Positions 17,962-60,581 of a stretch of DNA of 62,192 bases are shown one piece after another. Source of the DNA: Dimargaris cristalligena (Eukaryota); contig ML002239.1 of NCBI GenBank assembly GCA_003614675.1, positions 1-62,192 of the forward strand. The letters are read 5' to 3'. Below the pieces are notes generated by a model. The model saw only the letters and a list, made by a program, of their open reading frames with translations. It did not search any database and was not told where the DNA came from. The first letter of the stretch is position 1, and every line of letters begins with the position of its first letter. The position numbers were made by a program, and so were the translations under genes.

Positions 17962-19296
17962 TCAGTCCAACCCTGGTCCACCCGACGGCAGCAGACTGGG
18001 CTTATTGGATCCACCGGGGGCGAAGAGCGCCTGCATAATATCCTGGAAAGGGTTGCTCTGTTTCGGGATAGAGATATTAAAGTAAGTCTCGCCAATAATA
18101 TCCAGAAGCTAGATCGGTGTGGTTCAGGTTGGATAATCGCAATAGCAATATAGAAATAGATTGAGTTAGAAATACATGGGCAAGAGGAGAATGTCTAGGG
18201 TATTGTCATGAACACCGTATAATCCTGACTTTTTGAAGGAGGAGTAAATCGTACTTACTTGGTTTGCGGCTTCGCTGGAAGCGCCCCACTGGACTGGGTA
18301 TTCCCGGCGCAATTTGAGGAAGACCTCCTTGGCCTGACGTTCTACGGCCAACAGGAGCAATTGGCAAAAGTGGGCCATGGGCGAAGACGCCAACGTTTGG
18401 TACTGAGCCAGTGGATCATTGGCCAAGGCCCCACCAGGACCACCACCGTTACTGGCCGATGCGTCGTGGGGGGGGTTCTCGGCTAAATAGGTCTCCATGA
18501 AGTAGGAGGCGGAGTTGGGTTTATGGAGAGCCAAGTAGGGCAGTACGGCACGGGCGGCGAAAAGACCGCTATCCGCCATAGGCTCGTCCGGCATGGCCGT
18601 GGTTGACTGGGCCGCCCAGGTATGCATGAGCTGGGCCAGCCGCGGGGCACTGTCATGAATCCCTAGAAGCAAATGGGCCTCGGCGGCCTCAAATAACCGG
18701 TCCTGGGCCAACCGTGTACCCAATAAGTGGTGCAGGTCGGGGTCCCCGGCGGACAGGTAGGCCGGTAATTTCCAAGTCGACCCCTCCCCCGTTTGCGCCG
18801 TAGCTTCGGCCCCGTGCTCGAGGATCCACAGCCGTTGGGTGACCTTGGTCGACCAATTCAGCAGCCCTTTCAAAAGACGGGGGCGCTGGGGTTCACTGGC
18901 GGGCATTTGCATTAACAGTACGGTCAGGCGCTGTTTATCAGCGGCATAGCGGGTCCACCAAGCCGAGCTTGTATTTGCATTAGTTTCGCTGGCCAGGGTC
19001 GAGGCGGAGCTGGCTTCAGGAGCGGGGGGTAAAGCGAACCGACCGTAAATATCGAGCACGTAAGCGATAAGGTCTGCGGCGGACGAAGTTTGGTTGTGCT
19101 CGAGAAACGTCCGGGCGCCTTCCACCAGCAGGTCAATCGTTTGGCTTACTTTAACGGGCGGATCGGCTTGCGTGCTTTCCTCTTGGCCAACGGCTTTCAT
19201 GTACCGATTGGCCAATGTGCGGAGTCTCTGGTGGGCTTCGTAATATTCCCCGGCGGCCATCTGGGCCTTGGCGGAAGTTAGCAGTCGGGCGGACAT
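17962..19296 (-). CDS. GET4: Golgi-to-ER traffic protein 4 (394 aa)
   Basis: Exons 19296-18259 and 18108-17962. Motifs GEYYEAHQ.LRT...RY, SAADL, GDPDLHHLLG, AEAHLLLG, ARAVLPYL; C-terminal IGETYFNI..P..SNPFQDIM..LF...LD. Confidence 0.93.
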
Positions 19297-20547
19297 TGTG
19301 GAATGTGGTCAAATACAAAAAAGCAATATAAAGCAACGGGTACCAAAGAGGGGGCGAAGGAGTCGAATGTAGAAGCGGAATGGAAAATGAAGATGGGTAA
19401 TTCAGCAACCGTTAACAGCTAAGAACAGTCTCGAAGCATGAGGGCTTAGTGAGCTAGTCATGGGGGGGGGAGGTGTGAGCATGATAAAAAGCAGTGAGAA
19501 CATGCAAAATACTGGATATAGCAAGTTGGCGATGGTACGTTTTCTAAACTCCTATCTCATTACCATTACCGTTACAATGTATCTGTTTAGTATGAGGTCA
19601 GTAGCATTCGCCGGAACACATCCACTCCACTAAATATAATTGGTTTTTGGAGTACCGCTACATCAGCAAGTTGGGTATTTGATTATTAAACATCGAGTTT
19701 GCCGACTCGACACCGTTTGATATTATAGACGACATACTATTGATAACTGCCACTTGGACCATATGTCGTGTTTGAAGTCCTATAGTAAAGGCACATTACT
19801 TTGGTGGGTTTGGATGCCTTTCACTAGCTATCATCCAAGAACCACTCTCGTAAGATTCCTATCGAAATGGGTTATGCATACCCATTTGGTCTGATTCCGG
19901 ATCACATCGCCTAGAGGAACTGACACCCCCATTACTTATTTAATCGTAAACCCGTATATTTAAACATTGCTCATTAATTATACTATTATCACCGGGCTAT
20001 ACTATAAAGTCGCCCACCATCCCCTTGCATCGTCTCTGAGTAAGTTTCAGGCTGACAAATTCACAGATTGGGGCGATTTTCTCCAACGGTCGCCCAATAC
20101 ATGGATCCCCCCGAATAGAGGAAAATCATTTGGTAGGCTCAACTGCGCATTATCCAGCAAATGCCTATTCTAAATGCGACCCTCAGCTCTCGTAGATATA
20201 TATCCAGCCATTATGGAGTCTCCAACCCCTGCCCTCACAGAACAAGGCAAATCGAAGCTGGTCGGCACAATAGAATTGGTGAAAGGGCCGTCATAGAGAA
20301 CATTATTTAATTGATTAGGCAATTCACACACATGGTGCACTGATGAAAGTACCTTAGCTGGGTGGACAAAAAATGGATTATAGGCCAACCAGCAAGTCGT
20401 TAAGTAAGTAGACACCAATGTGCTATACATGACACAGAGATAAACAGCATGTGCCGCGGAACAAAGCAAATGCAGGAGGGAAGTTGGAGTGCAGCTCAGT
20501 AAGGAAAAATTAGGAACAAAATGCGCATAGGAAATTTATAGTATATT

Positions 20548-20620
20548 GGGGGTCTAGCTCAAATGGTAGAGCGCGCGCTTCGCATGCGTGAGGCAGGGGG
20601 ATCGATACCCCCGTCCTCCA
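20548..20620 (+). tRNA. tRNA-Ala (anticodon CGC)
   Basis: 73-nt cloverleaf with the G3-U70 alanine identity pair, anticodon loop TT-CGC-AT, T-loop GATCGATAC typical of eukaryotic tRNA-Ala, and T-runs downstream. Confidence 0.95.
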
Positions 20621-21280
20621 ATAAATATTTTCCAATTTTTTTATTGGAATAATCTTACTCTATCAGCTTGCTGCATTTTAGTTATAGTTAACAAGCGAAC
20701 GAAGTGTTATAGGGGGGTGGGTTAAGTGGATGTGTCTTTTACCTTAGTAGATGCCGTCGACGATTTGATATTTATTGGCGATACTTGTTTTGCTCAATGA
20801 ACAGGTCTACTATAATAATGACCGAAAGTCGTCATGCACATGTGTAAAGAACACGTTAGACATAAAATTTGATAGTGAAAATTGAATAAACTAATAGGGT
20901 CGGCCTTTAGGAAGGAATAAAAGAGGAAGAAAGATAAAGAAAATTTTGCATTAAATTTTTTTCCTATCTACTTCGGGGAAAAAGCTATTTTTACGGGTTT
21001 TTTTCCTTCCCCTCTATTAACATAATGAGTTTGCAAGACGAATTTTGCATAGCACCTCCTTATTTTTATCATCTGCCATTGGTTCCTATCCAGCGAATTG
21101 GGAGGAAGTGTTTTACACAATTAAAATGTGATAGTAGTCCACGTATTGCATTTTTACCAATTGGGCCTAGTCCGGATAACAATTACTCCAGTATTCGACT
21201 GTGCCGAGTCTATCTTTTATTCATTATACAAAATACACTTATTAGAAAAAAAACAATCAAGCAAGTTTATTCCAAAATAT

Positions 21281-26250: not shown

Positions 26251-26722
26251 TTACTGGGCCTTCTTCTTGATATTGACACCACTCTGTTTGAGGCCAGAAG
26301 GGGTCTCGATACCCGCGACCCCGGAAATGGCCACAATCAGAATCACAAGCATGAGCAGAACGGCCGAAAGAGTCATTAGCATGCCCGGGGTAGTCAGGTG
26401 GTAAAAGAAAGTGGGATTGTTGATGGGGCTGCCGGTGGCCGTGGCCGTGGCGGACATGGTTTCGGTGGTGCTGGTGAGCAGGGCGGTAAGCGCTTCAGTG
26501 GCAGTGGTGGTCGCCTAATTCGGGGGTCAAGTAAAGTAGCAGTTATTGGACGGCGAAATGCATGGGTTTGGTTTAGTCAATGGCCGGGTCAGGGTAGTGA
26601 GGTATTACCCAGTCCAGGGGTTTAGGCCGCCGGGTTTAGCGGCAACTCTAGAGCCAGGTTAAAATCATTGGGGGTCTTTAAGCAGGGTGGGTGCAAGGCA
26701 AGGCCTTTGTGGAACTTACCAT
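26251..26722 (-). CDS. Small ER membrane protein with VOA1/Ac45(ATP6AP1)/BIG1-type C-terminal TM domain (88 aa)
   Basis: ATG-only coding exon 26722-26720, GTAAGT intron to TAG at 26515, exon 26514-26251. Thr-rich N-terminus, FF..LTTPGMLM...LLMLVILIVAISGVAGIETP motif, C-terminal KKAQ dilysine signal. Confidence 0.75.
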
Positions 26723-32700: not shown

Positions 32701-35700
32701 ACCGTTTTTCCTAGCTCTTCACCACCACCACCTTCAATCTACCCGCTTCTGCTTCCTTGGAAGCGACGATGGGGATTTCCCTTGCTTTTTAGCCCAAAGT
32801 GGGGTACTAGGAAACATCACCCGATAAGGCGGTATACCGGTGGGGCCTGCTATATGGGTGGGTACCACATGTGGAACATAATGCCTTGAGCATGGTCTGG
32901 TCAAGTGTCGAGGAGAAAGGGGGGACTGTTTAATGACGGAATCTCCTCCATAATTGATTGGCCAGTCGTCCGACACGGTGGTGAACACTGGAGTCGATTA
33001 AGGAAAGGCGGGAGGTACACGAAGGATAGGAAAATGGGAATATTGGACCGACCCTTACCCCATTTACCTAACTGTACATCCCGCTCAAGTTACCCCAGCC
33101 CGTCCGTTTGCCCACCCCCTCCTTCCCCCCCCCCTAGCCCTGCCCCACAGCCATAGTCGTGGTCGTGGCCGTAGCCGCAGCCGCATCCCAGCCATACTGG
33201 CTAATATAACGAGTGCATGATTATGTAGACAGGGGGGATGGGTGTGCTAAGTCAGCCAACCTTGCTACCGTGCAGGCTTTATACTGACCCATAAAAGACT
33301 AGGGTTGCCGAGTGACCAGATAAGGGTCTATGGGAGTGTGGGCTGGGCTCCTTTACATGGGCTAGGTCATATCCATGGGCACATTGGTCAGCAGCCCAGA
33401 CCTGTAACAAATTGGTCATTTGAATGAGTTCTTCGAATATTGGATAAAAAAACTGTTCCGTTGTTGCCCTAATCCCTCTTCTTTCTCTAACTCTTACCCT
33501 TCCCCTTTCTTGTTTTACCAACCGATAGCGAATATTACCATCAGCGCCAATCCTAGCCACTATGCTTCAAATAGTTACATTTGGGGCCACCAGTGTAACC
33601 TTGTTTTGAAGGACCTTTACTCGCTCCCCCCATATGGCACCATATCTATTCCATTCACCAAACTCTGATGCAGCGAGCATTGACCAGCCCCCTCCCCCTT
33701 TTACTAATCCTGCCGTTAATTATTAGGCGCCGCTGCCCAAGAAGACAGGACCGCAGGTGATATCAGAGAAGGGAGGGGGAGTGGGGCTGGGCGAAACCTC
33801 CGTTACTCGAGGTTTCCCCGTTCGGTAGGTCAGTCATCCATCGCAGCAATGTCCCTTTTGCCTTTATTCCAACGTGGACCTCTTAATGTGATAGCTGTGT
33901 ACCTTAAAGTGGGGCAGAATTTTCCTTGCCGAATCCTTCGTCCTCATATTCCCCACCGCCATCTCGTCAGTTTCCTCCCCATGAGAGACTACACCAGCCG
34001 AATTACAATAGACTAAATAAATATATGTGCAGTATTAGAAACCAATGAAAAAATGGCAATGTAACCATAAGATAAATGGATGTATGGAACTTGGTCCCGC
34101 TGACCCAGCCTGTCGATCGGCTTTAAGTAATATATATGACAATATATTATTTGTATATTGAATGCCGGTGTGGGTGATGGGTTTTTACGGCGGGCCCATT
34201 GTTTAATTATACTAAGAAGGCTCGACTAATATGGACACCAGACCCCGCCGCCACTTCGCCACACCAACCATCTCTAGAACCACTTCTATCCCGTCCCTTC
34301 TGGGGTGGTTCGGCCCGCAACTACGGCAATTATTTTAAATGAAATTGAGGAAAATACCTTCCCCTTTTGAATATACAGTCAATACTAAGATATTAAATTA
34401 TTGGAATGTCCCTCCTGTAAATTAATGTATATCGAATATGGGAAAAGGGCATGGCTGTAAAAATAATCATGAGGGGGGGGGGTTTGATTCTTCGACGTCA
34501 GCCGTGGGTGGATCTATCTAGCGTATCCGCCAATCCCGGCAGCCAAATCAATGAGTATAGCTTTATCAATATCAACATTTTTCACCGAAAAGGCCAGCAT
34601 AAAACACAAGAAAACATTGTCCCAATTTGGATAGCCTCCGATTGCACCGAGGCTGTTCTTAATTCCGTAACCGGAGGCTACGGACGGGCCTTCTCGCCCC
34701 TTTTTGCCCGTGGACCCAATTAGTACTGTCAAGGCGAAGCGGGGCGAGAGCTGGGGGAGGAAGGAGATGGGAGGGGGAGTTATACTAGAGATTATACTGA
34801 TTCGCCCTTTTCTCATGATAATAGACCAATATACTGAACCACAACAGATTACCTATTCTGGGATATTGTTCAAGGGCGGTCACTCCCAAGCGCAGCCCAT
34901 CGAAATGAGTGAGCTGGATGTCGAGCTATCGTGAAAATCAAATGTGTAAAAAAAACGCAGAGTGAAGCGCTGGCAAGGGTCCAAAAGAGGATATTTCAGC
35001 AATCGCTGCCAGCGGATGGGCAAAATTACGTGAGGAGCAGCGAGTGTGCCAAGGTGGACCAAGCATAGTCTAGTCCACCAGCGGGTCGGGATTCGTATAA
35101 ATACCGCCACGGTTTCCTCGTATCGTTTAAACTCTACGAATCTAGAGCCACTGTTAATTAATATCCGATTTCTTGCTACTCCCATTGTCCCTCCTCCATT
35201 TTATTGGCATCATTTTACGGCCTTATAGTGGACAGCCGCCTTATCAATCCCACTGGATTTTTCGTTTTTTAGCAATAACCACCTTGCCAATTTCACATCT
35301 TCCAACTCACTCACCCATAGAACCGAGTGATAAATATCATCGCACTTCTCCGCCCAGCCATTCTAGATCACTGACTGGCCTTTAGTTCCTCAATTAACCC
35401 CCGAGCTTTCCCTCCCCCAGCCACTCCTCCATCAAAAATACCATTGCGTAACCTAGCCTCGGCCATACGCCAGTTTTGCTCTGCCTACCCACTCGGGCGG
35501 TTACCATTTACCACCGACCTGAACTAGGTGTCCCGGTTGACTTTAGGTAAGCACTTCATTTAGGCCTATCCATCTGGCGTTCTACCAAATGGGGGAAACC
35601 GACCCATTCGGGGCGGCTGGGCTGGACAAGTACATTTTAAAGGGCACCCGTACCACCAACCGGTATGGCCAAGTTTCCGCGTTCTTTCCCCGCCTTATCG

Positions 35701-35952
35701 GTACGGATTAAAAACCGTAGAAGGTAGCACCTACGGTTGGTCAATGGTGGTAGACAGAGGGCGGGGAAGGAAAGCAGAAGGAAGTGGCGGGGTGCCCGAA
35801 TAAGAAGGTGCTGAATACTATACTCATTCGCCCACACCCACTCCGTCCTCATGCAGCAACTATTACCCACAGGCCACCTCCCCCCCTCTTCCTCCCCCCA
35901 CTCACTCACACTGGTTCCTACCCTAATCTTTGTACCCGTCACCCACTCGCCA

Positions 35953-37000
35953 TATAAAGACCCTGCCTCGCCCAGCCATCTCCCGCTTCTGCCAGCACTC
36001 ATCGATGACATCGTCGGTTCAACCCTTCCATTAACATTTCTCTCCGCCCCCTTCTCCACGTACACGATTGCCCTTTATTATATTATCTTATCCTTTGGCC
36101 CTAGCCCTCCCTCCCTACCCACCCATCAACACCAAATTTTGCAGCTCCTTCATTGAGGTCAACCAGCAATTCCTTCCAATTCGCCTCCCATTGGTGCCTT
36201 CCTCATCTATTCTATTTTGGTACTTCCCGCGTTGCCTTCTTCCCTGCCTCTACTTTTCGGGTAGTTGTATAGTGGTCGGATCCTTAGGTCACCTTCCTCG
36301 TTGGTCTATATTACCAATATCATTTGAGGATTAAACCAACATTGCTTTGTTTCACTTGACCCTCCTATTTTTTGATTTCCAACCCCTCGATAGTATATTA
36401 TCCCCCTCTTCCCCCGTTGCTTGGTCCTACCACATCGGCCTCCTTTATCTAGTAGAGTGTGGGGTATTTCAGGTCACTGCAATTCATTTCCCACCTTTTG
36501 GCTCTATCTCACGTAGCTGCTGGTTTTTGCCGAGAACAACCTAAACGGCTCCTTTGTTTGGTCCATCTCACCTCCTATCCGCCCAAGGAGCTATTCGCAT
36601 TTTCCCCAGCCCTCGCCTTAATAGATTTTTTTCCAAACTCTCAGTCCACCCTTCCTCCCTCCTTCCCCCGCCGTTGTTTTCCGACTGATTTATATCGACC
36701 GGTTTGGCTACTGAGCGACCGCCCACAGAGCCGACCCTTCCCAGTATTCACTATATTATTCCGGAGGTGTCTCTCTTTTTTTCTCCACTCCGCTTCACGT
36801 TTTCCCTATTTTCGCCACCCGACCGCGTCTTCCCATACGATTGACCCCACTCGCTGCTTTGCTTGACCCATTCACCCCCACCGAGCTGATTGTATCCGGA
36901 TAGTTTTCCACCGAAATTCCCGTCCCCTTTCTAGCCTATACTAGCTAGCCCTCCCCACACACCACTTGCACCGTTTGTATCGTTTCCAACATTCGTCACC
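35953..37000 (+). promoter_or_regulatory. TATA box and ~1-kb pyrimidine-rich 5' leader of the ubiquitin-like gene
   Basis: TATAAA at 35953-35958. I found no ATG on the + strand between ~36008 and 37000. Strong start context GTCACC-ATG. Confidence 0.65.
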
Positions 37001-40000
37001 ATGCGTCTTCAAGTCTGGGATGAGAATATTTGCGACTTTTACGCAGTCGAAGTATCGTAAGTTAATAGGGCCTTGAATTGGCGTTTATATTTCACTTGTT
37101 ATTCCCCATGGGTACCGCCGACCATGTCATGCTACGACTTAAGCTGGAAATGGACCGGAGTACCTCTTTCCAGGCCCCATTGCCTGGGCACATTAGCGCG
37201 ACCAATTTATCTTTCATTTCATTCAGCTATTTTTGGCATTCTGCCAATAGAGGTTTGGTGCCTTGGGGAGAAGTGGCTTATTGGCGTGGGTTTTCACCCA
37301 GAGTATGTTTGATTGATATTATGGCCATCCGCGGACTTTTCCAGCAGTGTATTGCCGCTTTACGTATCAATGATGTGCTCGAGTTACTCCCCCCTCCCTC
37401 ACATATCACCCCTGTCATTAGCCGGCAATCCCCCCCTCCTATACCCCTCTCTTAGCCATGCCGTTGCTGACTAGGCAAACCCAATCTCTGGTTGGCCTAA
37501 AAGCTGGGCAAATGGGCCGCCGATCCATCATATTTACCACTTTGGTGCTTTCACTAAATTCGCCATTTTTTATGGCCCGGTGGCATATTCTGGGCCGTCA
37601 CTTTCGTCGCATTTGATTACTTTACCCCTGTCCCTACCCACTGTATATACATATTTATTGGTTCCTGTTCAAGCTTGGGGACCCCTATACCAGAGCTAGA
37701 CTGCCACCTTTCATTTTTCCGGCCATTTTTATTTTTTATTTTCCAAAACCTGGCGGCCCAACGTTTTCCCAATACGGCTGCAACTTAGCGGACTTTAGCT
37801 TGGCCCACTTGGTTGTTAGTACGATTGCCACCGCCAAGCCATTAATTAATCACTGCGCTATCCAATTTGATACACTGATTAATACGCTTCGACAGAGAAG
37901 GTGTTGATCGCTCTAGTTATAGCTATATTTTATTTTATTTTACCTTCCCACATCAGCTTCTGCATTCTTCTTCTTTATTGGGCCCTTTGTTGGGATAGGA
38001 CTGTACCGTTCTCCTGCGCCATTTCATTCACCATACCGGGCTACTCTCGTTTTTTGTTTACGAGAAAGGGGAGGGGGGGGGATATAGGGATTGCCATTTG
38101 ACTCCATGATATATGGCCAAGGTGTACGCACAATCCCATTCACTCTTCTAGGCAAACTAACTAATAATGATCTCTCACTGTCACTTCTGTCATGCTCGCC
38201 TTCCGCCATCCCATATACGACGGCTCCCCGCAACTCAACCACCGCAATTGCCCTCGGATCCTTCTTCGGGACCCACCTGACTTCTATATATGGTAATTCG
38301 TTGGTCCGCCGTCTCCCACTACCCTGGGGTTCTCCTTCATACTGGCCACATGTATTGACGCTCCGCGAATGATGCACCCGTATTCGTCCATACATTCAAC
38401 AGGGCATACGACCAGGTATGGTCTATAAAACAACAAGTTAGTCAAATGCTTGGTCTTTCTCCAAACTCACTCCGGTTAGTTGACGGGTAAGTGTTAAATG
38501 TGTATTCATATATGTAAATGTAAATGGTCATTATGTATGAGTGTGGTACATTCGGTCATCGGGCCGGCTGTGGTTTGGCCCCCTCGTCAGCGAGGATACT
38601 CCGCTATGATCACCTATCCACACCCATGTGCATACACATATTTCTACCTTGTTGGACAATCGCTTGCGCTGTGCTGACTAGTATGGGTGAGAGACTACGG
38701 TGCTGTCCTCCCAATTCCCCAAGCTAGAGGGGCTCGCCGTCCATTTTTTTTTTGGATAGGGTTGCGGAAGATATGTGGAGGGGGGAGCACACGGGGGGGG
38801 GGAGAGAGGCTATGCGAGCTAGAGACCTAGACCACGCCTGGGGTAACACGAAAGCCGTGACACCCAGCCGTCGACCCTGGGTTGGTTCAGCCCAAGAGCT
38901 CACCTCTAATTGGTCTGGTGAAGGGTAATTTGCCCATAAGCCGTATCAGTGAGCTGGAACAGGGTGCCTCGGAAGAAGGAGGAGGAGTAGAAGAAGACCT
39001 CCCACATTCACACCCTTCAACCGCTCTCATTCATCCACGCTCCCGTTGCTCCTCTTTTCGCGAGACACTACTTGCCAAAGATGGTGCGAAATGGCCGATG
39101 ATTGGATAGATACCGGTTTCCACGTTGCTGTCGGGCTGTTGTTGCTACTCCCCCCTCTCCCATTGGGATTGGACTATTTACGGCATCCCCTATACGCCAC
39201 TCCATATGAGGAGTGTGGGTTCCGGTATGGACTGTGAGCCCTTTCGGTTCGATCGTCGGCTTGATCCGTAAAATTACCTCCGTCACTAAAAAATATATAT
39301 ATATATATCTAACCAATGTAAAATTTATATGTGTGATCTTCTTCTATATTTACCCTACCTGCCTAATTCAATCCGACTAATTTTGGATGGCTCTAAAATC
39401 ATGTACTACTTGGAACTACTCCCATCCCCGCCACCTCCCCCAACTCTAATACTTCCTGTCCCTCTTGCAACCGTCGTACCTGGCCTCCTCCTTAGCGACG
39501 ATGAGCTTGACGACCACCAATATATCCAAAACTGTAAGTAATTTCTGAACTTATTGAATGGCCTGATGGGCCTTTTATGTTAATCTCTAAATTGGTCCTA
39601 TAGCTTTTTTTTAAAAAAAAATGGGGCTTGAGTGGGGAGGACACGTGTGACCGGAGCTTTCCTTTTTAAGGCACACAGTTATTCAGCGACGCAGGCATTT
39701 GTAGCTGATTCATACCCACTATGCTTCAGCGCATGTCTCTCGCCGAACGCTTTCCCAGAGCTCACCGCTGTACCATTCGTGACTGTCAGGATCCCCCCCC
39801 CACCACCCATACAACCTCCCGGCAAACACCCACTATATTCTCTACGTATGGGATACACCCGACATCCCCTCATTCTTTGCCCACCATACCAGCGTTTTTG
39901 TGGGCGGGCAGGAAATAGATTGGCGGAGCAAGCGGCTTGGGGGGAGGGGATCTACTCTAGCCACATCGCCTCTTTTCCCCATCTGTACATTGCGTGGACG

Positions 40001-40199
40001 TAAGAGAGATACGCCCGTGCTCACATTAATGCCCACCTGGCATTAGTGTCGGCCCTCACTGACTGGAATTCCTATGCACATGACTAATGGTTGATCCATC
40101 ATCCGGTTTATTTTTATTCATCCATTATCGATTGGTAATACCCCCCCTCCATACTTAGGTCAATTTGAGGAGGACGATTCTATCCATGTTTATTACTGA
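37001..40199 (+). CDS. Divergent ubiquitin-like (beta-grasp) protein, 72 aa, C-terminal YY, no di-Gly
   Basis: Exons 37001-37056, 38403-38486, 39496-39533, 40159-40199. All donors are GTAAGT, acceptors CAG/TAG/TAG, phases 2/2/1 compatible. Product: MRLQVWDENICDFYAVEVSAYDQVWSIKQQVSQMLGLSPNSLRLVDGDDELDDHQYIQNCQFEEDDSIHVYY*. It matches the ubiquitin fold pattern (EV...D.....K.......G..P...RL......L.D...H). Confidence 0.88.
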
Positions 40200-41174
40200 T
40201 TCAATGCAGCATTCTTGGGAATAACAAACGTCGGCACTCCGATCATCCAAAGCCCAGTGATAATTCGGCGATCATCGCATCCGGCCAGTCTTTTCTAGGC
40301 TAGACTGCCTCTGAGCATCGTTCACTGCCCCCCCTAGAAAAAAATAGCCCCCCACCCGCATATTCCACCTGCAATTCATCCATAGTGCCCATCCCCACCA
40401 ATTTAGTCGGCTGGGCCAATGGTCACTGCTATACAACCCGCGGCCGTTACCGAGGTTTCCTCGTATAATGTGTTTCACCTTACTCTTCCCACTCCCACTC
40501 CCCTCCCAAAATTTTTTGTACTTGTCTTCTATTCTGATGGTCCATGGCCGCACCGTAGATGTTTTTAGTAGATATATATAGATATACATATAGTTAGTTA
40601 AGTTAGCATATTAGAATATACACCCATCTGTCACTTTTTTCATTTTTTCATTTTCCACTTGTTAAACCCGTAATCGACCAATTCAGCTATATTTTTACCG
40701 CCTTTCAATGTAACGTGTTTCGTGCTTTCATCCGAAGGCACCAAGCTGCATTATTTATGCGCTTGTGTTAATTTTTTATTTCCGTAATGACCATCAGACA
40801 TTGTTTTTATCACCCTCTCTCTCATTTTTATTTTATTTTTAAATCGGCGGTTTAAATTAATTACAAAATTTCATAGGCTACGTGATTGTTCAGACCTTGT
40901 CATCTGACCATGCGTAAACCTCATCCTATCATAAAGACGTGTTTGTTCCAAGTGTCCACTTCCAGTTGTTTTATGAGGTGGTGCGGTACAATCCCCGTAC
41001 CCAATGGGATGGTGTCCATTTTGGGGGTAGCCGCTATAGGTTGCAATTGTAAAAATATTTTCTCAAGAATTCATTAAAGATGTCTCGAATTGGACAGAAT
41101 TCGGGGTATCTTAATGATAATAATTGGATAGCCACAGGGATGTCTGGTTTCATTTGCACTGCATTTCTATATAT

Positions 41175-41310
41175 GGGAGAGGTTCAACCAAGCTGTAGAG
41201 CGAAAAATCCATTTGATGAGGCAAATACTACTGGTTGAAAATAAGCATCCCACCGATTTTCCCATACACATATCGGTTAAAACCTTATACAACTAAGCTG
41301 CACTTCACCC
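41175..41310. mobile_element. MITE family B copy
   Basis: ATAT-GGGAGAGGTTCAACC...GCACTTCACCC-ATAT, 136 bp. Confidence 0.88.
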
Positions 41311-44300
41311 ATATGTTTTTTTACCGTGCTATAGTGCATGGCCAACATCAATAGTTTTCAACTGCTGCTTGGCGTCACTGCCCAGCCAACTGTATTTATA
41401 AATTGAATGAAACACTCGTGGTCACACTGTTAGGGAACTGCATTGGCTTGGGTCCCAATTACCCGGCTATTGCATTCTTAAGGAGTTGGCTGCATGGCGG
41501 GCCAAACCCCGAAATCGAACCCAATGTCATTTCCGCCAATCAGCCCACCACAACCCCCCAAATGAGAATTGGCCCGATACTGTGGGCTGAGTCACATTGA
41601 CGAACGATTTGCCTTTTTGAACCCAAGTTGACTAAACAAATTGCCCAATATCTATCGGGTGACGTATGGTGGCAGTATCTACAATGCAGGTGGGGAAGAA
41701 ACACCAGAGGGATTAGTTCCCTACCTAGAATAGCATCGGCTAGGCTTCAATGAACTCAGAATTCTCATCGCACCCGAAATTTCCGTTTTGGGGGTCTGTT
41801 ACCCCTTCCCTTCCCATATTCACTCAGCCATTGCGTTATTCATAATATTTCATACTCGTAGCTATTCGGGAAAAAAATATATTCATTACGTCTCGACTTC
41901 AAGAACCAAATCATGGGGAGGGGGTCTAGGTCAATTGGGAAATAAAAGGACCCAGGCGTTTTCCTCCTATGGTTTCGCGGGAGGCACCACCCCAAGTGAG
42001 ATGTTTCAGCTTTAGTGGGACCCTATCACACGGTTGAATTTGGGTCTCTATTATTTCTCTTTTTTCTTTTATATATATATAAAATAATAATATTTAATTT
42101 AACCATAAACGAAAAGGTCTCGTCAGGCAACGGGCCTATCCGCTATCGGATCGCCCTGGTCAATTCAGCGCATGATTTCACCAATATTAGTACGACGGAG
42201 TGTTGGTGTGCTGACAGCCCTTCCAAAGGCCAGAAAGTCCCGTTCTTTACCACCCGCCAGCCCAAGAAAAGGGGGGCGGGAGGAAGAGGAGGGAGGCATA
42301 CGCTTAATTTCCAATTAACCGATCCAGCAATACACTGGTCGGAGAGCTACCCCCTGAGGCGGTTTCCCTTATATGTAAATCCTCCGATTACGATATTCAT
42401 TGAGTTTTAGGATCCTTAAACCAAAATTATGATATCCCCCTGAGGAGGGGGGGGGGTTTCCAAACAAATCCACGATTTATAGTATTCAAAAGTCACCATG
42501 TAAATGTAAGCCTTCTAATATATATATCAGTATGTCAGCAGTTTAGTATACCGGGTCATGTTATCGATTAACGAATTTGAGAGTAATCGTTGGTAGCCGT
42601 CGGGTTCAAAAGAGCGACTGGTCTGTCTGGGTTTCGCCGAAAAATTAGGTTGCCGCCCTTTCCGTGTTTCTGATTGTTTACTATTTCAATGAACCATGCG
42701 GCCGAGGTGAGTGGGTGGGAGGAGAAGGCATCCTGCTTGGCCTATTAATGCTGCATTGACACGTCGCCATTCTCCATTTGGTTGGTTGGGGGCGGGTGGG
42801 TAGGTAGGTAGGTAGGTAAGTAGGTGGCTGGGTGGGCACAGGCCAGCCGATGGGTCCGACGAAATTGGCACGGTGCATGTTTCGGGTAGCACGTAGAAAA
42901 CCCGTCTGGGTTGGGTTGTCAGGTGGGTGTATGTCTGGGTGAGCAGGATGCTCTACAATTAGACATAACCAGCCACATATTATGAAGCAGTTGATGTGTT
43001 TTGCGGGTAGTCAAAGGAAGAGGGTATAAAGCGGTGACTAATACAGTAAAATTCAATATCCCCTAACATTTATATAATGTCCTTTATGCAATTCCCATCA
43101 CTCGATATTACTTGTCTTCGAAACCGGCACTTACAATACTCACTGGGAATGCTACGCACTGTCCTCCTAGTAAGGTTTGAGCTCCCAGTATATTTTTTTG
43201 TACCACTTGCCCACTTCTTTCCACCAGGTCGTCGGTATCAATTCGGACAGTCCATACAGCCACTTGCCAAATAATCCCTGTACTCCACTCTAGGAGGGGA
43301 AGTGACCATGCTAAAGGGGTCTTATTTTGGTAAACGATGGTTTTACGAAACCGCAGACAGCCGCTCTGTCTAACGAGCCCGTCTCACTCAAATGTTCAAT
43401 TTTTCGATCTCCCAGCGGATACATAGAGGATCAGCGAGACTCGCAAAAAAGGGGGGGGATTTTGATCTCTTTCCCTTTTCCATCTCAAATGACAAAGCTA
43501 CATTGTTTAGGACAGGGCCTGCGATTTTAAGTAGAGAAGTCGGCATCAACGAACTAATCGGGACTGGCTAGATGTTATTGTCCCGGTTGCACCAACAAAT
43601 CCCACTGTTTCAGAAGGCACTACTTATCTAGGGGTTCGTTATCCCGATTTAGCAGTGAACCATAGAGTGCACTACGTAACTCCCTCGTTCCGACTGGTGG
43701 GTAATTTGATAGGGGATTTGCTTGAACCATTGGACGTGTAATGTTTTTGGTGTGGCTATTATCCGCTAGCTTTTACGGAGGCAGTTGGGTTTACTTTATG
43801 AACAGCACGATCGAATGAAAATATTAATGACCGCAGCCATAATGGTGACTGTCTTGCTTAATTACTAAACAGCGCAGCCGAAGCCTCCAAATCCCCAAAT
43901 ACGTAGCCCCCCCTCCTCATCACTTATCTTGAAGCCCGTGAATTTATGGGGCTGCCGAATTCCATCAGGGCAGATTCGCCGGGAGAGAGTATACACCGTG
44001 GAACGTCGTCTAAACAACCGAGCTGCCCGAATAGAACACCAAGGGCAGGACCGTGGAACGCGATTGTCCAATTGCGAATCTTATGACCCGCTTGGGGCAG
44101 GGGCAAAACGCCTACGACATGCAGGTATTCTCTTTCTTTCTTTCTATTCACTTTTTCAGTTGCCAGTCCACGGCAACGGCTCGCGGTATTCTTCCTCAAT
44201 CGAATCACCGGATCCATGAACAGGCCGCCGAATTAAAGATCAGCGAACTGCTGATGTGCCTGTGTATTTTCTCTTGCATAATTCCCGCGCATCCCTTAGG

Positions 44301-58410: not shown

Positions 58411-58731
58411 TGCGGTTTATAGAGATAAATAGTTTATAACCAGTAAAGAAATCAGTTAATTATTTAACCTTTTCAGCTACCTGTACTCTGCAGTACCACA
58501 TATGCTATGAGTAAAAATAAAGGATATATAAATTGTGGAATGCAAAAATAAATGTTAATAAATAGGAGCACCTATTCAATTATAAAGTAGTGTATATTTA
58601 ACCTAATAAACTATTATAAAAAAATAACTTAAAGTAGTCTCTATAGAGGAGTTAAATTATACATCATCTATTCTTCAAATCTTGAATTTTATTTTTTTGA
58701 CAAAATGGGAATCGGAAAATCCTTATATGTA

Positions 58732-58804
58732 GCCCGGTTAGCTCAATCGGTAGAGCGTGAGACTCTTAATCTCAAGGTTGCGGGTTCGACCCCCGCATTG
58801 GGCT
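58732..58804 (+). tRNA. tRNA-Lys (anticodon CTT)
   Basis: 73-nt cloverleaf GCCCGGTTAGCTCAATCGGTAGAGCG-TGAGA-CT-CTT-AA-TCTCA...GGTTCGACCC...TTGGGC-T, followed by TTTT. Confidence 0.96.
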
Positions 58805-60581
58805 TCTACTTTTCCACTTTTGATGCTGATGTTTATTTTTCGAGTTAATTTGACCCATTCTTTATTATTGTAATTGTATATTTACTCACGCCAATGCATT
58901 GGCAACCAATTTTTGTACGATCTTATACTGGCCGTTTACATCAATCGTTTTTGGCATGCAGTAGACATTACCCATATACTACATTAGTTGTCAGTTATAT
59001 TCTTGGTGACCATAGGTTTTGCCGCAGTTTGAATGAAAAAAAATCGGATTTGGTATTAGTGCATGGGGATGTTTATGTTGGATTAGCCAGGCTAACCCCC
59101 CCCTGGTCAACTGCGTACTACGGCATAACCGAATTAGCCGGGGGGGAGAGCAGTGCAGTTTCATATTGCCATACCTCTGAAAATTAATTGAGCCATTCTT
59201 ATGCTTATCCCAATATCCAGTGGCCACAGTTCATCCAGGATAGATTGGTTGTATGGCTCTAGTTGTAGATGCTTCTTATACCTTGGTATTTCTGTAGTTT
59301 GCCAATAGGTAAATAACAAGACGCTGAAGAGAAACGCGCTGTCTTTCCCCAGGCATTATTGAGCTACCCCCCTCCACCTGACTGGGCTAATTACCATTCC
59401 CCCCTTATTCAACAGCATCTTGCCCCAGGGTATTTCTCTATCAACTCATTAAGTTAGCCGTTACAATATACTTTGAACCCGAATATGCCACGGCCATAGT
59501 AACCGGAATGGTACAGATATTACATTTCTTTCGCGATAGCCATTAGCATATGTGGTCAAGGGACCTTATCGGTAGATATCAGTGGAGTGGCTCGGACAGA
59601 CCTATTGTTCGTTTGGGATGTATGCAGATGAGAGGATCACCTTGGCCAACGTAGTCCCCGCCTAGAAAGAGGGATATGCTGTGCCTTCTTTGCTAATATT
59701 TTTCCCCTGACAGAGTCCAAGAGCTGTGGACAACTGACAGTCTGTGGCTTATTTGGCGAATTCCCAGCAAGTTGAAGTAATGCGAAGAGAAAGATGGACT
59801 GCTAGTGGAGTTGGACCCCTTAAGGGGCGCCAGCCTAAGCAAGAGTTGCTCCCGAGGCTCGTATGTTTATCATAGACCTTGTAGTACTAATAAAGGAATA
59901 TGGTTGTCCATTGGATTAGATTGACCTAGTTCATCCCTCCTACCTGACCTACGTGACTCAGCTGGTCTATTATTTATACCAAATTATCGTCCTCCCCTCT
60001 TATCGAGCGCATAAACACATTACCAGCGTGTATGCATGTGTCCACTCCCAAGCCAAATGTTATTATATAAGATACAGATGGCGTGCTTATAACAACAGGT
60101 CCTTCCTTCCTTTCTCTCTCCCTTGGTCCTTGCGTCCTTCTAATTTACGGCCTTTTCACTTATCTCCCGCGTCCTTTAGAAGCCCCCCTCTCTTGTACTT
60201 TGCCCGTTAAACTATTATTTGTGTTTTAATATTTTAGATAACCCGGTCCGTCAGTTACGGTCCTTTGTGCTCACCTCCTCGTTTTATTAGGCTGCCCGGC
60301 ATCGGCCACAGCCCATTGCTGCCCATTTAGTTTACCCTCCGTTGCCTGCTTCTAACTTTACTCAGTACCGTTTCCTGTGTTTGCTCACATTCTTATTTTA
60401 TTACTCTATATGCTCATATCTCCCTCTTTCCATGTAAACTACATTTGCCGTTTTCTTTCACTATTAGCTATACCATAAATCTCTTCCAACCCCATTGCCC
60501 GCATTACCCGAGCCTTGCCCTGGGCCGTTAATCTTACTTGTGGTTTATTGCTTCGTCACCCGGTCAATACTGGACAAGCCA

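Follow-up and report, generated by a model that had tools for sequence, protein, structure and literature searches.

In the 62,192-nucleotide (nt) stretch of the Dimargaris cristalligena genome analysed here (the window, to which all coordinates below refer), the plus strand from 37001 to 40199 probably carries a genuine protein-coding gene, a highly divergent and acidic descendant of Hub1/UBL5, a ubiquitin-like (UBL) protein that regulates splicing. We consider it very likely, judging from the sequence, that this gene is real, derived from Hub1 and maintained by selection. Given such a gene, the balance tips towards a neofunctionalised paralogue, which would exist beside a canonical HUB1 located elsewhere in the genome of this early-diverging mycoparasitic fungus. 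Hub1/UBL5 is near-invariant from yeast to humans and belongs to the most conserved eukaryotic proteins. The protein described here is a divergent variant of the known Hub1 family and not a new UBL family. An earlier note on the same DNA had proposed an undescribed UBL family with two possible origins, a neofunctionalised Hub1 paralogue or an acidic ubiquitin mimic; the first origin fits the intron positions, whereas a new family or a mimic finds no support, as the gene structure shows derivation from Hub1.

The coding sequence comprises 219 nt scattered across 3.2 kb in four exons. Exon 1 (37001..37056, plus strand, as are all features of the gene; 56 nt) includes the ATG, codons 1-18 and two nucleotides of codon 19, and by correspondence to the UBL fold it encodes strands beta1-beta2. 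The start codon has the context tcaccATG and is the first methionine of a stop-to-stop frame (36935-37060), with no earlier in-frame ATG; the only start choices at the locus are the ATG codons at 37001 and 37020. The pyrimidine-rich 5' flank (36800..37000) is a putative core promoter or 5' untranslated region. Intron 1 (37057..38402; 1346 nt, GTAAGT...CAG) interrupts codon 19 in phase 2 and is followed by exon 2 (38403..38486; 84 nt, codons 19-47, both end codons partial), which spans the alpha1 helix and beta3 and carries D22, K28 and G36. Intron 2 (38487..39495; 1009 nt, GTAAGT...TAG) lies in codon 47, again in phase 2, and precedes exon 3 (39496..39533; 38 nt, codons 47-60, both end codons partial), which carries D53-H54. 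Intron 3 (39534..40158; 625 nt, GTAAGT...TAG) lies in codon 60 in phase 1, and a pyrimidine tract and its TAG directly precede exon 4 (40159..40199; 41 nt, codons 60-72), which corresponds to beta5 and terminates with two tyrosine codons and an immediate TGA.

All three donors (at 37057, 38487 and 39534) are GTAAGT, and the acceptors are CAG, TAG and TAG, in agreement with the consensus at every site. Between 30633 and 42815, these three donors are the only occurrences of GTAAGT on either strand; the window as a whole contains 40 of them, against 27.0 expected. The annotated intron of the neighbouring GET4 gene (18109-18258, minus strand, 150 nt) likewise has the form GTAAGT...TAG, which shows that D. 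cristalligena does use GTAAGT...YAG introns. The spliced product has 72 amino acids (aa), including 15 aspartates and glutamates and three lysines and arginines (a single lysine among them), lacks Gly-Gly and ends with Tyr-Tyr (YY). The exon and intron lengths and the residue counts given in the earlier note proved exact on re-reading the sequence. As a separate observation, the introns contain runs of 8-9 G or C residues (38073-38088, 38794-38809 and 39791-39804), maybe representing assembly-prone homopolymers. An Rfam scan of 35500-41500 returned a single weak MIR394-like match, in intron 1 (37220-37261, plus strand; E=0.068, 25.8 bits where the gathering score is 60), which we take as a chance match; no Rfam family is assigned to intron 1, and the repeats at the locus were unremarkable.

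The decisive evidence comes from the gene structure, since conserved introns mark common descent with Hub1. A comparison sample was collected by scanning metagenome contigs with a short degenerate motif, which yielded 119 Hub1/UBL5 loci. All of them were traced with a spliced-profile programme, a dynamic programme that aligns genomic DNA to a Hub1 profile with a penalty per intron; 102 loci reached 60 bits or more, and these represent 83 unique gene models, of which 30 have no intron. Among the 83 models, the commonest intron positions (codon, phase) were (19,2), (60,1) and (47,2), with 19, 13 and 10 occurrences, respectively. The introns of the D. cristalligena gene, at (19,2), (47,2) and (60,1), occupy exactly these three positions. 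The same triple forms the commonest multi-intron Hub1 structure, found in five models (e.g. L003, L006, L037 and L038), and another model (L018) has this triple plus a fourth intron. Accordingly, the lengths of exons 1-3 (56, 84 and 38 nt) are the canonical Hub1 lengths.

By our own arithmetic, the chance that three random positions out of 216 (72 codons in three phases) coincide with this triple is about 6e-7, and the chance that they fall on any of the 34 observed Hub1 positions is about 4e-3. The match of intron positions is independent of amino-acid similarity. Because all three positions and phases are shared, we conclude that these introns are genuine and that Hub1/UBL5, rather than ubiquitin, is the source of the gene. 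The micro-exon layout is not peculiar to it; this is the ancestral layout of UBL5 genes with lengthened introns. Elsewhere in the metagenome sample, six Hub1 genes (L014, L026, L042, L043, L056 and L058) have a single intron at (70,2), just before the codons of the terminal YY, and a Pezizomycotina-like group (L022, L040, L080 and L082) has introns at (6,2), (42,0) and (70,2); Hub1 intron positions are thus lineage-specific markers.

Similarity of the encoded protein to Hub1 is low and nevertheless significant. The 119 loci included 33 intronless genes for 73-aa proteins, 26 of them unique, from which one hidden Markov model (HMM) was built; a larger Hub1 HMM was built from 70 proteins and a ubiquitin HMM from 82 unique ubiquitins of viral contigs. 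The spliced 72-aa protein was tested at full length with these HMMs, and external searches used single exon frames. Gap-free identity to the 26 full-length Hub1 proteins ranged from 9 to 18 of 72 residues with a mean of 12.1, in agreement with the gap-free alignment and the value of about 12/72 estimated by eye in the earlier note. When the sequence was shuffled with its composition preserved, none of 20000 shuffles reached the maximum identity and one of 20000 reached the mean. The match to the Hub1 profile is weak but significant, at 8.2 bits (E=1.4e-4) for the HMM of 26 sequences; the HMM of 70 sequences gave 9.9 bits (E=4.3e-5, Z=1), with residues 16-72 aligned without gaps to positions 16-72.

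The ubiquitin HMM gave 17.1 bits (E=2.3e-7) over residues 15-70, also without gaps. In this alignment R43-L44 and H69 pair with R42-L43 and H68 of ubiquitin, residues that had been recognised as kept before any profile was built. Comparison with hhalign likewise gave a P-value of 1.8e-5 (probability 78) against ubiquitin and 4.9e-4 (probability 32) against Hub1. Genuine Hub1 proteins, however, score alike on the same ubiquitin HMM (9.5-24.1 bits, median 17.5), and the higher ubiquitin score therefore reflects the shared fold only.

The extent of the divergence was measured against the set of 70 Hub1 sequences, in which a column was called invariant if it was at least 95% identical. Seven of the 33 invariant columns are retained, namely M1, V16, D22, K28, G36, D53 and Y71; H54 and Y72 are also kept at their aligned Hub1 positions. 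This bears out the previously listed residues shared with UBL5 (D22, K28, G36, D53-H54 and Y71-Y72), the absence of H63 and the judgement that the protein is far too divergent for an ordinary Hub1. The replaced invariant residues include the basic strip at positions 7-18, K29, K41, K46, W47-Y48, K52 and H63. Within positions 7-18, V16 is the sole identity to the Hub1 motif, and position 63 is occupied by a glutamate inside an acidic run (63-66). The net charge is -12, compared with -1 to +5 (mean +0.6) in Hub1 proteins, and the isoelectric point is 4.05 vs 7.29.

An open spliced frame alone proves nothing at such a locus, as 373 open four-exon open reading frame (ORF) models are possible on these three donors, and family profiles are needed for this reason. 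The model described above ranks first of the 373 under both the Hub1 and the ubiquitin HMM; multiplied by the number of models, its E-values become about 0.016 and about 9e-5, respectively. An identical exon model was recovered by the Hub1 spliced-profile search over 36501-40700 when any GT-AG intron was allowed at a penalty of 8 bits. With donors restricted to GTAAGT and acceptors to YAG, the locus scored 27.7 bits, compared with 10.5 bits for the next independent locus of the window and with best scores of -17.2 to -3.5 bits in 13 simulated windows. We also scored each exon with a position-specific scoring matrix (PSSM) of the matching Hub1 segment and ranked it among every window without a stop in the six frames of the 62 kb. 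Exon 2 (rank 4 of 36071, p=1.1e-4) and exon 4 (rank 9 of 70183, p=1.3e-4) stood out most clearly, followed by exon 3 (rank 86 of 70183, p=1.2e-3) and exon 1, which was compared with Hub1 positions 1-18 (rank 363 of 53303, p=6.8e-3).

The gene is not listed among catalogued proteins, including both existing annotations of this genome. Two D. cristalligena proteins match the GET4 frame of the window at 99% and 87% identity, which indicates that the database searched includes the two annotated proteomes of this species, and the expectation of the earlier note that ORF callers were likely to miss the gene has thus held. Exon 2 was used as a query, either as its 43-aa stop-to-stop frame or as a 27-aa peptide. 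Among proteins of 23-76 aa none shared words with it, and a search of 1.84 billion protein representatives of any length gave one match, a repeat-protein artefact lying partly on intronic residues, although a probe of 28 residues could reveal close relatives only. With the same exon, no chain was retrieved from PDB, and the best score in the ESM Atlas was 0.79, under the lead level. In Pfam, five exon-frame pieces gave no UBL match, and ten ORFs in and around the locus gave only four weak matches (E = 0.099-0.23), which lie under the curated cut-offs and are taken as chance. A metagenome scan for the acidic form produced 30 pattern matches and no relatives.

A number of observations weigh against the proposed Hub1-derived gene and should be considered together. 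Altogether, 26 of the 33 invariant Hub1 columns are altered, and the protein scores only modestly on the Hub1 HMM, below its score on the ubiquitin HMM. The outcome of the spliced-profile search also depends on its rules. When any GT-AG intron was allowed at a penalty of 5 bits, other places scored up to 30.4 bits and the locus fell outside the top six; at 10 bits, the locus scored -2.3 compared with 6.7 in the SMC gene; and when GTRNGT donors and YAG acceptors were combined with a zero penalty, its 27.7 barely exceeded the 27.3 of the SMC coiled coil. Most of the rival high-scoring chains found under permissive rules sit in this K/E-rich coiled coil, and permissive splice rules make the profile test non-discriminating. 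A rough estimate from the PSSM rates is that about two four-segment exon-like chains would arise by chance in the window if splice sites were ignored; what makes the match significant is therefore the splice sites and phases together with the HMM tests of the whole protein.

Composition gives an ambiguous picture. The codon-usage log-odds of the spliced coding sequence is -0.133 per codon. Relative to non-coding mosaics this is only the 95th percentile (4.6% were equal or higher), and it falls short of the lowest 72-codon window (-0.117) in the four genes used for training, a small set of 1590 codons that was scored in-sample. The purine content of the exons was matched by 1919 of 20000 intron mosaics and does not differ significantly. 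The introns are 4-9 times the length of the verified 150-nt GET4 intron; the range of about 140-490 nt reported earlier for introns of neighbouring genes was checked on this one intron and agrees with it. No relative of the acidic form turned up in the protein, ESM Atlas or metagenome scans. A canonical Hub1 query (L052) returned no Dimargaris name among the 120 listed of 2004 matches, although these 120 are 6% of the total and the missing name is nearly uninformative, and the canonical basic HUB1 motif is absent from the 62-kb window at up to three mismatches. With no canonical HUB1 seen either in the listed matches or in the window, the paralogue status of the gene is something that we infer.

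The alternative that survives best concerns this last point. The acidic protein could be the only Hub1 of the species, a true orthologue that evolved extremely fast while its partners co-evolved or were lost; D. cristalligena would then have no canonical HUB1, and its sole Hub1 would have been remodelled wholesale, its charge reversed and its basic strip and Prp5 face gone, with D22 kept. We regard this as unlikely, both as an account of the gene and as a statement about the genome. It would agree with a gene structure that is the same as in canonical Hub1 genes, with the failure to see a canonical Dimargaris HUB1 in the listed matches or the window, and with a long-branched lineage, given that GET4 is 44-46% identical even to its next relatives (in Dispira, Tieghemiomyces and other Dimargaris). 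However, 33 of the 72 Hub1 columns are at least 95% invariant over 70 sequences, and the listed database matches of Hub1 are 82-93% identical to the query. The loss of 26 invariant columns together with a reversal of charge is far easier after duplication.

A second alternative, that of a decaying and unexpressed HUB1 duplicate that is still open by luck, appears to us quite improbable. Several of the difficulties listed above would suit such a pseudogene, in particular the ambiguous codon usage, the unusually long introns and the lack of a homologue of the acidic form in searches, and the gene is located in a 28-kb stretch nearly without coding-like ORFs. At an identity of just 9-18/72, however, a neutral relic should have acquired indels and stop codons and suffered damage to its splice sites, and nothing of this kind is present. 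All 72 codons are free of stops and of indels relative to Hub1, exons 1-3 have canonical lengths, the GTAAGT donors are perfect, and the ATG and the stop after YY are intact. The core has been preserved as well, as 17 of 25 hydrophobic Hub1 columns are still hydrophobic (363 of 100000 shuffles equal this), and the profile signal of the ubiquitin fold is retained. The protein thus has the hydrophobic pattern of a ubiquitin fold. This preservation would point to purifying selection on both the reading frame and the fold, in line with a selected, Hub1-derived gene.

Much less credible is an origin apart from Hub1, whether as an independent UBL family or as an acidic mimic derived from ubiquitin. 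It would account for the ubiquitin profile scoring above the Hub1 profile (17.1 vs 9.9 bits; hhalign probability 78 vs 32), but genuine Hub1 proteins do equally well on the ubiquitin HMM, and Hub1 characters are seen in the position and phase of all three introns, in the length of 72 aa, in the missing tail and in the terminal YY. Least plausible of all is a chance assembly of short frames at chance GTAAGT sites or a piece of a larger gene: micro-exons do dodge stops easily, as the 373 open four-exon models illustrate, and three GTAAGT in 2.5 kb are only mildly unusual, with counts in the 28-kb stretch near expectation, but this is opposed by the identity shuffles, the unbiased recovery of the model, the ubiquitin HMM, the ranking among the 373 models, the simulated windows and the exact coincidence of three intron positions with Hub1, and the match to Hub1 is collinear from M1 to the stop, with no space for further coding exons.

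The H63 surface of Hub1 stimulates Prp5, and conjugatable UBLs such as ubiquitin, NEDD8 and SUMO have an exposed Gly-Gly tail. As described in sections of a review (PMC8431670), Hub1 has no tail or Gly-Gly, ends with di-tyrosine and acts non-covalently. Parts of a second source (PMC4141198) state that Hub1 grips the Snu66 HIND helix by means of a salt bridge between D22 and an arginine, and name M1, V16, K17, C18, N19, K29, L30 and A33 as further contacts. Passages of a third (PMC8790634) describe two surfaces, a D22 side that binds HIND and an H63 side that binds Prp5. Hub1/UBL5 structures mentioned in the sampled literature are 4PYU and 3PLV.

On the model of Hub1, the 72-aa product would fold as a beta-grasp domain that ends with YY right after beta5. 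Since it ends with YY, contains Gly-Gly nowhere and lacks a flexible tail, conjugation is expected to be impossible, and the protein would act by non-covalent binding as Hub1 does. In the HIND-clamping face M1, V16 and D22 are kept, and two positions change conservatively (C18 to V, N19 to S). The other changes are non-conservative, with E in place of K17 and Q in place of K29, L30 and A33. The retained D22, M1 and V16 lead us to predict that the protein binds a basic, arginine-containing helical partner. In contrast, with the loss of the basic strip and of H63 from the Prp5-binding face, Prp5 would be predicted to be no longer stimulated. A paralogue with these properties would either have a new client or compete for HIND-type motifs. 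A related possibility is that the paralogue serves as a natural antagonist, which would occupy HIND-type motifs without activating Prp5.

The other genes recognised in the window are eukaryotic housekeeping genes and encode a protein with an SMC hinge, GET4, ATG13, a lactone oxidase, a kinase, an RRM protein and a CsbD-like protein. The Hub1-like gene is contained in a gene-poor stretch of 28 kb (19300-47300) between GET4 and the protein-kinase gene, in which long coding-like ORFs are nearly lacking, 26254-26514 (minus strand) being the sole one to score as such; this stretch may hide more micro-exon genes of a kind invisible to ORF-based scans. Two tRNA genes were found on the plus strand, tRNA-Ala (CGC) at 20547-20621 and tRNA-Lys (CTT) at 58731-58806. 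For GET4 (17965-19296, minus strand), the two database models differ in length (394 vs 350 aa). The shorter model omits two additional stretches of about 72 and about 60 nt; mapped from the gapped alignment, their ends do not resemble GT...AG, possibly an annotation artefact.

An acidic copy that keeps the architecture, the fold pattern and D22 would represent a natural separation-of-function variant of the near-invariant Hub1/UBL5. Such a variant could reveal which surfaces of Hub1 serve HIND binding and which serve Prp5 activation, and it could show whether cells employ Hub1-like decoys. Should it instead be the sole Hub1 of the species, Hub1-dependent splice-site choice would have been rewired in an intron-rich early-diverging fungus. 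So far the radically remodelled Hub1 copy has been found in one genome. A literature search, which was not exhaustive and is not proof of absence, found no paper on a divergent Hub1 paralogue, and the term 'paralog' is absent from the main text of the Hub1 review (PMC8431670). From a methodological point of view, the case suggests that conserved intron positions can rescue genes in the twilight zone of sequence similarity.

With ubiquitin (Pfam PF00240 in the wide sense), the protein shares a significant gap-free profile match and the equivalents of R42-L43 and H68. In contrast to ubiquitin, it lacks the LRLRGG tail, has one lysine, carries acidic residues on the strands of the I44 patch and is encoded by a gene of Hub1-type structure. 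Its likeness to Hub1/UBL5 extends to the length (72 vs 73 aa), the beta-grasp sequence pattern, the lack of a tail or Gly-Gly and the YY placed right after beta5. Furthermore, the two are collinear from M1, and the intron positions, their phases and the lengths of exons 1-3 match the commonest intron-bearing structure of Hub1 genes. The protein differs from Hub1/UBL5 in that the stop directly follows YY, where Hub1 usually has one extra unconserved residue, that the basic N-terminal motif is gone, that the introns measure 625-1346 nt and that most of the invariant columns have changed.

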